Shown here piece by piece: positions 3,001-9,000 of a stretch of DNA of 64,000 nt. The stretch lies in the NCBI RefSeq assembly GCF_051903065.1, contig NZ_CP178439.1, one strand, 5' to 3'. Numbering within the stretch: position 1 is the stretch's first letter; each line of letters opens with the position of its first letter. Position numbers: made by a program. The DNA comes from Escherichia coli. GTDB lineage: Bacteria; Pseudomonadota; Gammaproteobacteria; Enterobacterales; Enterobacteriaceae.

Positions 3001-6000
3001 CAACGTGGATTTGTTGAATAAATCGGGCACTGTTGCAAAGTTAGCGATGAGGCAGCCTTTTGTCTTATTCAAAGGCCTTACATTTCAAAAACTCTGCTTA
3101 CCAGGCGCATTTCGCCCAGGGGATCACCATAATAAAATGCTGAGGCCTGGCCTTTGCGTAGTGCACGCATCACCTCAATACCTTTGATGGTGGCGTAAGC
3201 CGTCTTCATGGATTTAAATCCCAGCGTGGCGCCGATTATCCGTTTCAGTTTGCCATGATCGCATTCAATCACGTTGTTCCGGTACTTAATCTGTCGGTGT
3301 TCAACGTCAGACGGGCACCGGCCTTCGCGTTTGAGCAGAGCAAGCGCGCGACCATAGGCGGGCGCTTTATCCGTGTTGATGAATCGCGGGATCTGCCACT
3401 TCTTCACGTTGTTGAGGATTTTACCCAGAAACCGGTATGCAGCTTTGCTGTTACGACGGGAGGAGAGATAAAAATCGACAGTGCGGCCCCGGCTGTCGAC
3501 GGCCCGGTACAGATACGCCCAGCGGCCATTGACCTTCACGTAGGTTTCATCCATGTGCCACGGGCAAAGATCGGAAGGGTTACGCCAGTACCAGCGCAGC
3601 CGTTTTTCCATTTCAGGCGCATAACGCTGAACCCAGCGGTAAATCGTGGAGTGATCGACATTCACTCCGCGTTCAGCCAGCATCTCCTGCAGCTCACGGT
3701 AACTGATGCCGTATTTGCAGTACCAGCGTACGGCCCACAGAATGATGTCACGCTGAAAATGCCGGCCTTTGAATGGGTTCATGTGCAGCTCCATCAGCAA
3801 AAGGGGATGATAAGTTTATCACCACCGACTATTTGCAACAGTGCCCTTGAATCTATCCGGCGTCTGAATGGGATTTTATTCCCGCGCCTTGATGAGTTCC
3901 GCGCCTGATGAACCTCCAGAAAATATACGGCTTCAATGAGCCTTTCCGTTTTACAGGTTCCTCAACAGGCCGGTGGGCCGTTAGTATCATCAATATCAGT
4001 ATTCGCAAAACCAGATCAGTAATTCTTTAAACCGGTGTATTTCTGCCGTTATGCTACATAAGTTTGCTGTCGTGCCGTTAGGGCCCAGGCTATTCTGGCC
4101 AGCTTGTTTGCCAGAGCACAAGTGACGACAAAGTTGCTTTTCCGGCACAGTAAATCCCTGACCCAATCGGCCAATTTGCCAGACTGGTGTTCCAGTTTTT
4201 GTATGAATACCCTGGCACATTGAACCAACAAAGTTCGGATCTTTTTATTACCTCGCTTACTAATTCCCAGCAATGTCGTCCTACCTCCCGTGCTGTACTG
4301 CCGAGGTACAAGCCCTGTTGCCGCCGCAAAGTCACGGCTGCTGGCGTACTGCTTCCCGTCGCCAATCTCAGTTGAAATAGTACTCGCTGTCAGTGTTCCG
4401 ACGCAGGGAATGCTCAGCAAGCGCTGTCCAACCTCATCTTCGTCCAACTTTCGTTTCAACTGGGATTCCAAATCTTTAATCTGCTCAACAAGATAGTGAT
4501 AATGCTGTTGTAATTTCAGCAATAACTGGCTGAGGTAAAGAGGCAAACTACTGTCCTCAAGAATGGTACTCAGTCGGCTAATAACGGCAGCTCCTCGGGG
4601 AACGCTAATGCCAAATTCCAGCAGAAAAGCATGCATTTGATTGGTTGTTTTTACCTTATCCTGAACCAGGGATTCACGGACACGATGCAGAGCCCGCATT
4701 GCCTGCTGAGATTCCGTTCTGGGCTGCACAAAACGCATAGACGGACGCGATGCAGCTTCACAAATAGCTTCGGCGTCGACAAAGTCGTTTTTATTGCTTT
4801 TAACGAACGGGCGGACAAATTGTGGTGATATCAGCTTTGGGGAATGCCCCAACTCTTCCAACTTGCGTGCCATAAAGTGAGAACCGCCACAGGCTTCCAT
4901 TGCGATGGTTGTAGCGGGGCATGTCGCCAAAAATTCGATCAACTTTGGCCGGGTAAATTTTTTACGGTAAACAGCCTTCCCGCGACGATCCTGGCAATGA
5001 ATATGGAAAGAGTTTTTACCCAGATCGATACCAATGAGCGCAATGTTTTCCATGATAGTTCTCCGAATGAAAGCCTGTCCTCAGCATAGTACCGGGAAGG
5101 AGGGAGTGACCATCTCATTAAATATCCCACGCTAAGACTGTTTGCTGTACAAATTGATGTCGACAGCGCGTAATGACCGTAGTCACAGGAACAGCTAATG
5201 GTATTGAAAATTGACCCGTAACTGAAACAGCATCGACCCAGCAGCGATGATGTGAACCTTGAAGAACTTTGGGTGCAGCCTCTTATAGCAGCAGTTTTTG
5301 CTGTTGTTCCCTTAATAAGATATGCCCTGTAAATACCCTCATGGCTTCATTTATAATACTATTATTAGCTTACTACGACTCAGTCTAGAAACAGCATCAT
5401 CTCCACTGGGGCTAAAACACCACTTACCGCATGCTTTCATATAACCAGATTTCAGCCCCCTTGAAAGGGACTAATCGCTGTATACCAGCGAGTCTAAAAC
5501 ACCTTGTCCACTATGGACCCCTCCCTCTGTCGATTCAGCTGATTTGCTACGAATTAGATATCCAGCAAAACTGTGCTCAGCACTGGAGGGATTGTTATCT
5601 GTCTGCACGGAGAACATTCCAAGTTCGCTTATCAAATCATTCACCTTATGCAACTCCCCTTTACGCACAATCAAGGTGGGCATAGCTCGGGGCTGAGGGT
5701 GTAAACGGCGCATCAGCGACCAGGACTGATATTGTTGTGGAGTGAGTTCCGTCAGTTTTGTCAGGATATCCGCACCAAACAGACAATGCCCCCCGCCTTC
5801 ACCCTGATTTTTGAGAACCCAGGTTTCCGAAGGAGACTCTTTTGCAAGGTTGATACTATCCGGGCTGATGGGTAACATCTCACCCAGTATCGTTTTTGCT
5901 ATTTTAGCTTCCTGCAGTGTTAATCCAAATGCGACAAACTCGTCGTAACCCAATTGCGAGAGCAGCATTTGTACTCGCTTGCTGGTCGCCAGTTGCTGGC

Positions 6001-9000
6001 CAACTGTGGCGTTCACTGCAACCCGGTGCTGCTCAATGAATACTCGGGTCGCCATCAGCGCCTGACAACACTCCTGCTCATCGATATTGAATGCTTCATA
6101 ATCAGAATACTGATATCCGGCACGTAAGTAGACGGTATCAAGTGGGCCTACACCCTCGAGAATGAGCCTGTTGTCGGCGCCTGTACTCAATTGATTATGC
6201 AGTTCACGAAAAGTCCTGCGATGCGTTTCGATTCCTTTTTGCTGGAGGGCGAGCTCAAGCAAGTGTTGATCAAACACATTATTTTCATTCTCCTGCACAA
6301 TCATCAGGAACCTGGCAGGGCCGGGGTCTCCGAACTCCTGCTTAATTCTGCAAGTTGCCTGACAAATCGCTGCTGATAACCCTTCGATCGCTTGATTGTC
6401 GACAAGCGCCCCTGTTGCCTGATTCGATAAATCAGAAAAGACAGCGGGATATTGCCGTTGTAGATAGTGATGCAGATCATGTATCCGCTGACCAAACGGC
6501 CCCATTCCTGCAGCTATACCATTGAACTCTATAAGCCTGAACCCATCACGATTATCATCCATAAAGTCGCTACGCATAATGAGTAATGGTAATCGAGGAG
6601 CATGCCTTGATGATGAATGGATTTGTTGATGCATGTTCAGGAGGGCTGAAAAGAAGGCATTCCCGGCCTTGATGGGATAAATCGCAGAGTACAAAAAATC
6701 ATGATCCTCAGAAACTGAATAGATTAATTTGCTGAGTATTCCTGTTGCATTCTTTAAGTACTGATAGGATTTACGGCTGATAGGTGTTGGTGTCAGGGTA
6801 AACGGGGTATGCACTGCGGAATACGACGATTCCTTGAAAGCAACACCATGAGTTAAGGCCCATTCGACGGCATCATCCTTGAGCTTCTGAACATCAAGAG
6901 TACTCATTTTACGTCCCCTGATTTTACCTGGCATATCATTGGTGGTTGTTACTTGGCTATCAGCCTATAAAATTTGATTGATTACTTCAATAGTTCACGT
7001 ATAGGAAATTGAAAAACCAGTCGATACCATTGTCCACGCCTTATGCCACGTGAGCCTTTCTGCTTTTCCCACCACTCCGGTGGTTTCCCTCTCTGTATGG
7101 TCGATTTTTAGGCACTGTTGCAAATAGTCGGTGGTGATAAACTTATCATCCCCTTTTGCTGATGGAGCTGCACATGAACCCATTCAAAGGCCGGCATTTT
7201 CAGCGTGACATCATTCTGTGGGCCGTACGCTGGTACTGCAAATACGGCATCAGTTACCGTGAGCTGCAGGAGATGCTGGCTGAACGCGGAGTGAATGTCG
7301 ATCACTCCACGATTTACCGCTGGGTTCAGCGTTATGCGCCTGAAATGGAAAAACGGCTGCGCTGGTACTGGCGTAACCCTTCCGATCTTTGCCCGTGGCA
7401 CATGGATGAAAAGCCAAATCAGCGCCCAAAAGGTCTGCACTTGGATAAGCTGGAAACCTTGAATATTTTTGGTGTGCGCGCCAGCTATATGGCGGCATTT
7501 AAGGATTATCTGAAGGAAGAAGGTATCACCCCAAGTGATGAGATCATCGAGCTAGACTTCCCGACTCAGCCAAACCTGCCGACCAAAAAATTAAAGACAC
7601 TGGCGTTAAAGGATGGCTACAAAGACAACCAAAAGTTGGGGTTTAAGCGTACCCACTATCCTTGGTTGTACGAAATCCCAGCCGAGTTTGACGGTAAGAT
7701 AAAAACACCCGGGATCCTGCTCCTGGCTCTGCTCTCCTGTCTGCTGTTGCCCGCGCCGTCGCTGGGCCTGACGCTGGCGCAAAAGCTGGTTGAGACATTC
7801 CATATGATGGATCTCAACCAGCTTTATACGGTGTTGTTTTGTTTGTGGTTCTTAGCACTGGGCGCCATTGAGTATCTGGTGCTGCGCTGGGTGTGGCGTC
7901 GCTGGTTTTCGCTCGAACGCTAAACCAGGAAGGGCGCGCCTCAGTGGGCGCGACTGTGGTTCTCTTTACGGTAGGCGCCCGGCGGCAGATTGAAGGTCCG
8001 GGTGAAGACGCGGGTAAAGGTCTGTTGCGAATCGAAGCCATACTTCAGGCAGATATCGTAGACCCGCTGATCGGTGTCACGCAGATCGCGGGCGGCCAGC
8101 AGCAGCTTCCTTTCGCGAATATAGCGCCCCAGGCTCTCCCCTTTATACTGTAAAAACAGCCGTTGCAGATGCCATTTCGAATACCCGGCATGGCGAGCGA
8201 TATCATCAATACGCAGCGGTTGATGCAGGTTGTCATCAATCCACTCGACGATAGTATCAATCACCTGAGCGGAAATCGTCATATGCTCTCTCCTCTGATA
8301 CTGCACTGGCGCTTAGCGCCACCAGGCGTTAAATGATTGCGTCTTATCGGCGACCCACACCGGCTCGCCCTGCACAGGCGTCAGCAGACGCCAGGCCCTT
8401 CCTTCGCTGGCAGCCGCCAGCCGTTGATACGGTTCATCCCAGCTGTGTTTCGCCAAAACGAATCGTCCTGCATGCCCAGGCAGCACCGCGCGAGCGCGCA
8501 GGTCGTCGGCGGCCTGAGCTGTTTCATCCGGCATCATGTGAATATATTTCCAGTCCTGGTCATACTGCCCGTTCTCCATGATCGCCAGATCGACCGGACC
8601 AAATTCATCGCCTATCGCTTTAAAGTGCGGCCCATAGCCGCTGTCGCCGCTGTAATAAATCCCTAAATTCCACGTGTGTTTTTTATTAGCTTCAAAAATC
8701 ACTATTTCACGAAGAATTTAGACTGCTTCTCACACATTGTAACATTATTTACAACCACCTTTCAATCATTTTTGATAAATCATTGATTTCATCTTTGCTG
8801 CAATGATACTTAATAAACTCTGCAAGTTATCCACAGAGCAGGAAAAGTTCGAAGCATTCTTCTTTCAGATGTTTCTAAACACTGGAAATTGAGAGATTTA
8901 GCTGATTATCTTTACATGAGCGAGAGCTTAATAAAGAAAAAGCTATTATTAGAAAACACTTCTTTCAGTAAAATATTACTTGATACTAGGATGTCGCTCG

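Follow-up and report, generated by a model that had tools for sequence, protein, structure and literature searches.

A eukaryotic-type glutathione synthetase gene, probably a passenger of arsenic-island origin, in an IS26-built resistance mosaic on Escherichia coli plasmid DNA

Within a stretch of 64,000 nucleotides of Escherichia coli DNA (assembly GCF_051903065.1, contig NZ_CP178439.1; this whole stretch is called the window throughout), the product of a minus-strand gene is an intact ATP-grasp ligase of the eukaryotic type of glutathione synthetase (GS). The window consists of IncHI2-type plasmid DNA in which the gene stands alone within a resistance mosaic, and the gene as such is already known, annotated in RefSeq and widespread on resistance plasmids. 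It is probably a functional and likely expressed GS that once belonged to an arsenic (ars) island and, orphaned from it, hitchhikes in mosaics built by the insertion sequence (IS) IS26. New here are the arsenic/metalloid islands that surround its relatives, the sigZ-gshA-ABC-ABC-GS operons (ABC, ATP-binding cassette) of the wider family, the apparent loss of an ArsR-type regulator gene and loop changes that run through the whole bacterial clade.

Profile searches place the protein in the eukaryotic-type GS family. In Pfam, PF03917 covers residues 15-484 (9.7e-61) with PF03199 inserted at 209-316 (4.3e-19), and nothing besides these two was matched at E <= 10. The profile search proposed in a first-pass annotation, which a model had made from the sequence alone, thus returned GSH_synth_ATP with the inserted GSH_synthase domain over the full length and no other Pfam family, and upheld the eukaryotic-type GS homologue with its family motifs, among them QGEGGGHCLFG (residues 377-387 in the reading of 487 amino acids (aa)). 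TIGR01986 (glut_syn_euk) is the sole NCBIfam match at E <= 0.01. Because no family model of prokaryotic GshB is matched (Pfam E <= 10, NCBIfam E <= 0.01), the literature name gshB is a misnomer for a protein of eukaryotic type. That the enterobacterial GshB is unrelated, as the annotation had put it, goes too far, as PMC2876114, citing Polekhina 1999, treats the eukaryotic and bacterial GS as distant homologues connected via circular permutation. End-to-end matches to the solved GS of potato, human and yeast and to soybean homoglutathione synthetase reach E values of 1e-41 to 1e-36, which places the family match far beyond chance.

The fold agrees with the profiles. An AlphaFold2 model, calculated from a 27-sequence alignment, has a mean predicted local distance difference test (pLDDT) score of 85.7 and a predicted template modelling (pTM) score of 0.88, its low-confidence segments being the known mobile loops, and the top 31 matches of this model in Foldseek are all GS structures with template modelling (TM) scores of 0.83-0.88, such as 0.83/0.88 to 5OES, 0.84/0.85 to 2HGS and 0.85/0.86 to 3KAL. 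Two-domain architecture and fold are shared with human GSS (2HGS), potato StGSS1 (5OES) and the yeast enzyme (1M0W), all EC 6.3.2.3, and the fold also with soybean homoglutathione synthetase (3KAJ/3KAK/3KAL) and nematode GS-like effectors (5OEU, 5OET). Identity to the eukaryotic GS is only ~24-26%, however, and the plasmid protein is bacterial, plasmid-borne and known here from its sequence and a model.

Pocket residues were taken from the structure-guided list of Lilley et al. (PMC5919673, S4 Table) with potato StGSS1 as the reference, and their conservation was judged across 119 bacterial homologues. The glutamate pocket for gamma-Glu-Cys is complete, all six side chains being identical to potato GS and invariant in the 119 homologues, whereas the nematode GS-like effectors keep 0-2 of the six. 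Common to the plasmid protein and the eukaryotic GS are, besides this pocket, the Mg/ATP residues and the catalytic Arg of the cysteine pocket; the G-loop also keeps its GGG, and the ADP pocket is identical to StGSS1 at 11 of 15 positions, with the differences N381C, Y383F, Q409R and I411L. Two Ser of the cysteine pocket, which contact the substrate via the backbone (PMC5919673), are replaced by Ala and Gly. Throughout the 119 homologues, these features too are fixed or nearly fixed. Most probably, the predicted reaction is the ligation of glycine to gamma-glutamylcysteine to yield glutathione.

With respect to the gene borders, an open reading frame (ORF) scan of the window does recover the 487 codons on the minus strand (5471..6934) that the first-pass annotation had called, and the ORF is real; its start, however, likely lies further downstream. 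The ATG at 6934 has no ribosome-binding site, and the start is taken at 6907 because the sequence AGGGGA precedes it, the resulting 478 aa agree with the length of nearly all homologues and the RefSeq start of WP_000105383.1 is the same. Aligned homologues also show a purine-rich stretch immediately 5' of the ATG. The gene would thus extend over 5471-6907, and positions 6935-7110 are non-coding: native upstream DNA accounts for the first 62 bp, an IS1294 end for the next 114 bp.

The upstream DNA carries a candidate promoter, which recurs in the nearly identical upstream region of the Salmonella homologue as TTGAAG-17-TAGTCT. This similarity stops exactly where the IS1294 fragment begins, and the divergent ArsR-type gene of Salmonella starts ~20 bp beyond that junction; judged from this alignment, the fragment appears to have replaced the divergent ArsR-type regulator gene seen in the relatives. 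As the promoter is kept and the presumptive repressor is lost, we infer that expression of the plasmid GS is probably constitutive and derepressed. The first-pass annotation had instead looked to an outward -35 hexamer of the adjacent IS26. A hybrid promoter built on this hexamer (TTGCAA, 7118-7123) was discarded, since no acceptable -10 follows at a spacing of 16-18 nt and none is listed in the scan; this hexamer sits ~130 bp upstream of the candidate native promoter, which is closer to the gene and conserved with Salmonella.

What the gene may once have done can be approached through its relatives. A scan of one genome per species over 100,044 species gave 190 relatives; 80 loci were kept, all of aquatic Gammaproteobacteria, including Shewanella sp. 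ANA-3, bar one metagenome-assembled genome labelled Erythrobacter, and their neighbours were clustered without prior labels. The nearest non-plasmid relatives are those of Salmonella (80% identity), Aeromonas and Yersinia (77-78%) and Shewanella (64-67%). In a distance (neighbour-joining) tree, the plasmid protein groups with the Salmonella island copies, beside the Aeromonas/Yersinia group, so that the phylogeny proposed at first pass did find the branch, though not a donor. The chromosomal homologues of Salmonella Paratyphi B, Aeromonas, Yersinia and Shewanella, at 64-80% identity, share with the plasmid protein the length of 478 aa and the clade-specific residues, and the Salmonella copy in addition the promoter block; they are flanked, however, by ArsR-type regulators, ArsP permeases, arsC, arsDA, ACR3 and GAPDH-arsJ, the plasmid copy by IS fragments.

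This association with arsenic genes is a property of the close relatives. All 10 loci with at least 60% identity have ArsP or ArsR neighbours and 8 of them core ars genes, while ars-type neighbours occur at 2 of the 38 loci below 52% identity. The Salmonella locus and a related contig show a divergent gene of the ArsR family and, after it, an ArsC homologue of the low-molecular-weight phosphatase type, a tyrosine phosphatase and a TtrA-like molybdoenzyme; the Salmonella locus also has arsR-arsD-arsA. ArrA was considered as the identity of the molybdoenzyme and dismissed, as the latter is TtrA-like at 663 bits (below cutoff) and reaches only 86 bits with ArrA. In Yersinia, chrA-padR lie upstream and a Cys-rich ArsP_1 permease and a small thioredoxin downstream; Aeromonas tecta has the order arsR-arsR-arsD-arsA-PTP-GAPDH-arsJ-ACR3-arsC with GS 21 bp after arsC, Shewanella putrefaciens arsP-GS-arsB-arsC, and in Shewanella sp. 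ANA-3 the GS gene directly precedes arsD-arsA. A representative of the Aeromonas arsC neighbour cluster is of the glutaredoxin-dependent type (NCBIfam 252 bits against a cutoff of 242). The association has been seen before in passing, a "glutathione synthetase" being drawn inside the ars/arr modules of Shewanella and Aeromonas (PMC6429310). On the sequences compared, the bacterial clade appears confined to aquatic and enteric Gammaproteobacteria, with the plasmid GS in a sub-branch embedded in arsenic/metalloid islands. The gene in the window itself is not an accessory of an ars operon; that description fits the relatives only, as the 64 kb contain no ars gene and IS1294 occupies the side where the regulator would be.

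More distant members of the family are linked to glutathione synthesis by another route. The 38 loci below 52% identity have gshA nearby in 9 cases, a paired ABC exporter in 13 and SigZ in 15, and among all 80 species-level loci a bona fide gshA (TIGR01434, 542 bits against a cutoff of 393) is found near 11, typically in the order gshA-ABC-ABC-GS and often with sigZ nearby. Indirect support for catalysis comes from both sides, gshA near these 11 loci of the wider clade and glutaredoxin-type arsC adjacent in the close relatives: the gshA linkage is independent support for a glutathione-pathway role of the family, and the arsC linkage provides a rationale for the plasmid protein's own branch.

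Two observations on these neighbourhoods stand apart from the plasmid gene. Seven loci of Vibrio, Enterovibrio, Photobacterium and Aliivibrio (L068, L077, L080, L087, L094, L100, L103) share a conserved cluster of gshA, paired ABC exporter and eukaryotic-type GS, with a SigZ-type extracytoplasmic function (ECF) sigma factor gene nearby in six of the seven, which suggests a stress-induced module of glutathione synthesis and export; no description of a gshA-ABC exporter-GS cluster was found in the literature. On the Salmonella Paratyphi B chromosome (L003, 9595-14522), a cluster of the CBASS type (cyclic oligonucleotide-based antiphage signalling system), composed of a SMODS cyclase, a SAVED effector, a Cap2-like E1/E2 protein and JAB, lies directly downstream of GS, and the whole region can therefore be regarded as an island of accessory genes.

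On plasmids, the gene is anything but rare, and its qualification as unusual at first pass has to be withdrawn in view of the RefSeq annotation, hundreds of plasmids and several papers (PMC6052338, PMC6288184, PMC6739495, PMC11781320). A protein of at least 99% identity is encoded by at least 338 plasmids of PLSDB, hosted by Escherichia, Salmonella, Klebsiella, Citrobacter and other genera and, in one case, by Pseudomonas; identical DNA covering at least 80% of window positions 5100-7150, from the end of the IS110-type element across GS to the start of IS26, is present in 298 PLSDB records. Complete E. coli genomes carry the gene in 173 of 5,426 cases, with 193 of 198 places on plasmids, and the assembly collection lists the exact protein in 3,192 blocks. 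Of 352 plasmid records, 338 (~96%) have an intact gene; truncated and frameshifted copies exist (H72-H78). In all of the 10 places listed, IS26 lies 266 bp upstream of GS, with mostly an IS110-type element or a Rep3-type repA downstream, and these shared neighbours of the listed copies indicate a single ancestral module. A context of the exact protein without IS26, which might be ancestral, is not among these 10 places, and the cluster representative (P0001) is a 2-kb contig only.

The module has been described as "delta-repA - iterons - gshB - delta-IS1294" (PMC6288184, PMC6052338) and is mentioned in PMC6739495, and a 2025 paper on a fitness-enhancing plasmid (PMC11781320) lists an IS26-flanked glutathione synthetase with the genes whose role there is unknown. 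In the IncN1 segment of the IncHI2/ST3 and F33:A-:B- plasmids (pHN6DS2, pHNFP460-1, pABWA45_3), it has the same sequence as in the window, the copy of which is that module with an IS4321/IS5075 insertion; differing from it, the copy in the window has lost to IS26 repA, the iterons, 52 bp of the IS110-type element and the outer half of an inverted repeat.

The history that would connect these observations begins in an ars island, where the GS, controlled by an ArsR-type repressor, would top up the glutathione used in arsenite-thiol chemistry and by a glutaredoxin-dependent arsenate reductase. On the plasmids, only the gene and its promoter would have survived, IS1294 having removed the divergent regulator and any partner genes, while the other side of the gene would have come to abut a dead Tn3-family end, into which IS4321/IS5075 then inserted. 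Fixed beside an IncN-type repA-iteron segment, the fragment would since have been carried along as a passenger of the resistance mosaics that IS26 has built on IncHI2, IncF33 and IncN plasmids. Constitutive expression is probable in such a setting, with little gain expected for E. coli. E. coli has its own GshB, and the GshA step limits glutathione synthesis and is feedback-inhibited by glutathione, so that an extra enzyme for the second step should change little; lack of benefit is accordingly what we infer for the plasmid copy.

A number of points weigh against this reading. The native promoter is a candidate which matches at the level of the consensus only, and no donor at more than 80% identity was found among the genomes searched, so that the origin in an ars island is read from the relatives; the ~96% of intact plasmid copies could reflect selection and not recent common descent. 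Concerning the enzyme, its score with TIGR01986 (236.4 bits) stays under the curated equivalog cutoff of 329.8, and, differing from the eukaryotic GS, the Ala-Ala of the terminal-amino-acid loop is His-Ser, invariant across the bacterial clade, and the Asn-Asn-x-Tyr of the G-loop is His-Cys-x-Phe, fixed or nearly so. With these loop changes invariant throughout the clade, glycine is likely but not proven as the third substrate, and literature searches turned up no assayed bacterial eukaryotic-type GS.

With the replacement of Ala466 (human numbering) by Gly, equally fixed or nearly so in the 119 homologues, these substitutions and the sub-cutoff score are the ground for a different product, as also raised at first pass: the clade might join an amino acid other than glycine to gamma-Glu-Cys, or the invariant His, Cys and His residues might serve a metal(loid)-dependent control, and the enzyme would then produce or regulate a thiol peptide other than glutathione. 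In plants, the Ala-Ala pair contributes to the choice between glycine and beta-alanine. Soybean and nematode enzymes are examples of a change of substrate via loop or pocket substitutions (PMC5919673), and in the soybean homoglutathione enzyme, Leu-Pro at the positions that are His-Ser in the plasmid GS contributes to the use of beta-alanine (PMC5919673, S5 Fig legend). Yet nematode clade 2 GS prefers glycine although the two Ala positions are not conserved (PMC5919673), the gamma-Glu-Cys pocket of the plasmid protein is fully canonical, and the linkage to gshA and glutaredoxin-type arsC fits ordinary glutathione, which makes a different product unlikely, if worth keeping in mind. Less probable still is a selected accessory function, in which the derepressed GS would raise or buffer the thiol pool of the host and aid glutathione-dependent detoxification. 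Candidate targets are FosA3 and fosfomycin, arsenicals in animal feed, electrophiles and metals, and persistence on livestock-associated plasmids would be explained. Such a role is in line with the intact gene in 338 of 352 records and its kept promoter, with the repeated occurrence of the module on fosA3-bearing IncF33 and IncHI2 plasmids of animals in China (PMC6052338, PMC6288184, PMC6739495), with relatives that adjoin genes of glutathione-consuming arsenate reductases and with the fitness-enhancing plasmid of PMC11781320. But intactness says little about selection, as all copies are at least 99% identical and broken ones exist; the limiting GshA step and the resident GshB speak against an effect of a second-step enzyme, and literature searches turned up no experimental test of the plasmid gene in this or any other respect. 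Nor is there fosA3, arsC, arsR or ACR3 in the 64-kb window, so that the link to FosA-type fosfomycin inactivation, raised at first pass, finds no footing there, the evolutionary context being arsenic/metalloid islands and not fosfomycin.

The gene might, at the other extreme, be a silent relic, intact only through the youth of the module and without useful transcription or translation on these plasmids. It has lost its regulator and partner genes and stands between dead remnants of IS elements, and for the native upstream region a stricter promoter scan yields no site; the -35/-10 pair and the Shine-Dalgarno sequence are nevertheless retained and conserved with the Salmonella homologue, and loss of an ArsR-type repressor would favour expression over silence, so that a silent gene seems very unlikely. 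These rival readings need not exclude one another entirely. The most far-reaching combination, that the clade is a metalloid-responsive thiol-peptide ligase with product or regulation unlike an ordinary GS and that the derepressed plasmid copy is positively selected in livestock-associated Enterobacteriaceae via tolerance to arsenical feed additives or FosA3-type thiol-dependent resistance, is held to be a long shot.

As it stands, the plasmid GS is one of the ordinary passengers of IS26-built resistance plasmids, catalogued before and, it seems, no new resistance device; the useful corrections to it are the eukaryotic type in place of gshB, the arsenic/metalloid islands or gshA-exporter operons of the relatives and the presumed loss of the ArsR-type regulator. 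Should the gene alter thiol pools, it would matter both for fosfomycin resistance that depends on glutathione and for the way in which arsenicals co-select multidrug plasmids; if it were a metalloid-responsive ligase under such positive selection, it would be an unrecognised determinant of co-selection or enhanced resistance on mcr-1, fosA3 and CTX-M plasmids. What remains of interest is the bacterial clade, with the loop substitutions fixed in it and its tie to arsenic islands, and this clade offers a simple test case for the terminal-amino-acid loop setting specificity.

The features around the gene are collected in Table 1.

Table 1. Coordinates of the GS gene and its immediate surroundings in the window
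Feature	Position	Strand	Remarks
Complete IS26, 820 bp	3026..3845	-	both 14-bp terminal repeats; 240-aa transposase ORF 3078..3800
IS4321/IS5075-type IS110-family element without distal 52 bp	3846..5120	-	transposase 4049-5053
Inner 16 bp of 38-bp Tn3-family (Tn21-like) terminal inverted repeat	5121..5136	+	target of IS110-type insertion
tnpA remnant, last ~16 codons (ending ..LRSLRAVDINLYSKQS, then stop)	5132..5182	-	Tn3-family; stop codon within inverted repeat
288 bp between tnpA remnant and GS stop codon	5183..5470	.	sequence comparison
Eukaryotic-type glutathione synthetase (GS) gene	5471..6907	-	478 aa, WP_000105383.1; in-frame upstream ATG 6934 gives 487 aa
Native upstream DNA	6908-6996		ends at GTTC (6993-6996)
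Shine-Dalgarno-like AGGGGA	6914..6919	-	6 nt before ATG 6907; read from sequence
Candidate native promoter	6962..6990	-	-35 TTGAAG (6990-6985), 17-nt spacer, -10 TAGGCT (6967-6962)
IS1294 (IS91 family) end fragment, 114 bp	6997..7110	.	inserted beside GTTC (6993-6996)
Truncated IS26, first 301 bp	7111..7411	+	301 bp identical to complete copy, then divergence

The record that matches the window best is an IncHI2A/IncN plasmid, and the rest of the window is IncHI2 transfer backbone. That the gene is flanked by IS elements, an IS5075-like element on one side and a truncated IS26 on the other, and is alone in the mosaic was correctly recognised at first pass; that it is cargo of these elements was not, as they cannot mobilise GS as a unit, one IS26 being truncated and inverted and the IS110-type element truncated. 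A pseudo-compound transposon or translocatable unit of IS26 was likewise rejected, the right IS26 comprising only 301 bp in inverted orientation to the complete left copy (3026-3845) and being fused to Klebsiella-derived DNA. The complete copy is 99.6-99.9% identical to the IS26 of pABWA45_3 and has cut off the distal 52 bp of the IS110-type element, which aligns to the IS5075 region of L001 from position 7747, the element there starting at 7695. In L012 and L001, the same element bears the annotation IS4321 or IS5075 family; its subterminal repeat GGGAGTGACCAT is located at 5102-5113 of the window. The IS1294 fragment has been described as the oriIS end (PMC6052338, PMC6288184), and the identical 114 bp abut an IS91-family transposase gene in pE2865-4.

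Downstream of GS, 334 bp separate the half-repeat of Tn3-family type from the stop codon. Joined to its other half in pABWA45_3, the half-repeat yields GGGGTCCGCTTGGAAAACGGAAAATATCCCACGCTAAG, which matches the Tn21 inverted repeat at 31 of 38 positions and is found uninterrupted and exact in five loci (L017, L018, L020, L023, L104). A Klebsiella plasmid (L105) has a 36/38 variant of it beside 390 codons of the TnpA C-terminus that end in ..YRALRSVNSNMYKKQA before a stop codon within the repeat. By this comparison, the repeat is a dead Tn3-family tnpA end, which explains the insertion of IS4321/IS5075 at this place. GS as cargo of a Tn3-family transposon was rejected in turn, since the repeat is the tnpA end with ~16 codons of tnpA left and no second matching repeat bounds the gene. 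The interval 5183-5470 resembles neither the DNA downstream of the Salmonella, Yersinia and Aeromonas homologues nor the tnpA of L105.

The same repeat, GS and IS26 are present at 8173-10809 of L104, the 250-kb IncP-type plasmid pSDM007 of Pseudomonas hygromyciniae, where strA-strB and not the IncN iterons abut the outer side of the repeat and the protein is the variant WP_000105382.1; the fragment has therefore left the Enterobacteriaceae. A second solo repeat of the tnpA-end type, GGGTTCCACTTGGAAAATGGAAAACATCCTACGCTAAG, lies on the minus strand at 10380-10417; it shares 33 of 38 positions with the one beside GS, and tnpA-tail-like codons (..LFKKRS, then stop) come before it. It was considered as the other end of the same transposon and rejected, sitting in IncX/IncN-like backbone near dqlB as one of thousands of solo ends. 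Such 38-mers occur in 3,776 PLSDB plasmids and are potential targets of IS4321/IS5075.

Besides the truncated copy at 7111-7411, complete copies of IS26 are found within 22 kb at 1026-1845, 3026-3845, 14032-14851 and 21318-22137, framing aph(3')-Ia, the GS module and a floR/ISVsa3 segment in the manner typical of an IS26-built mosaic. Fused to the truncated IS26 is a chromosomal fragment of Klebsiella type (7412-8702) with DUF1158, ramA (7941-8306) and part of a romA-like gene that is truncated (8313-8702); this fusion provides the IncHI2 plasmid with a mobile copy of an efflux-activating regulator. The ORF at 7156-7923 across this junction is a chimera of the N-terminus of the IS26 transposase and foreign sequence. 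Further on, positions 8750-9500 of the window are AT-rich (33-39% GC) and contain an orphan AraC-type C-terminal fragment (ORF 8889-9134).

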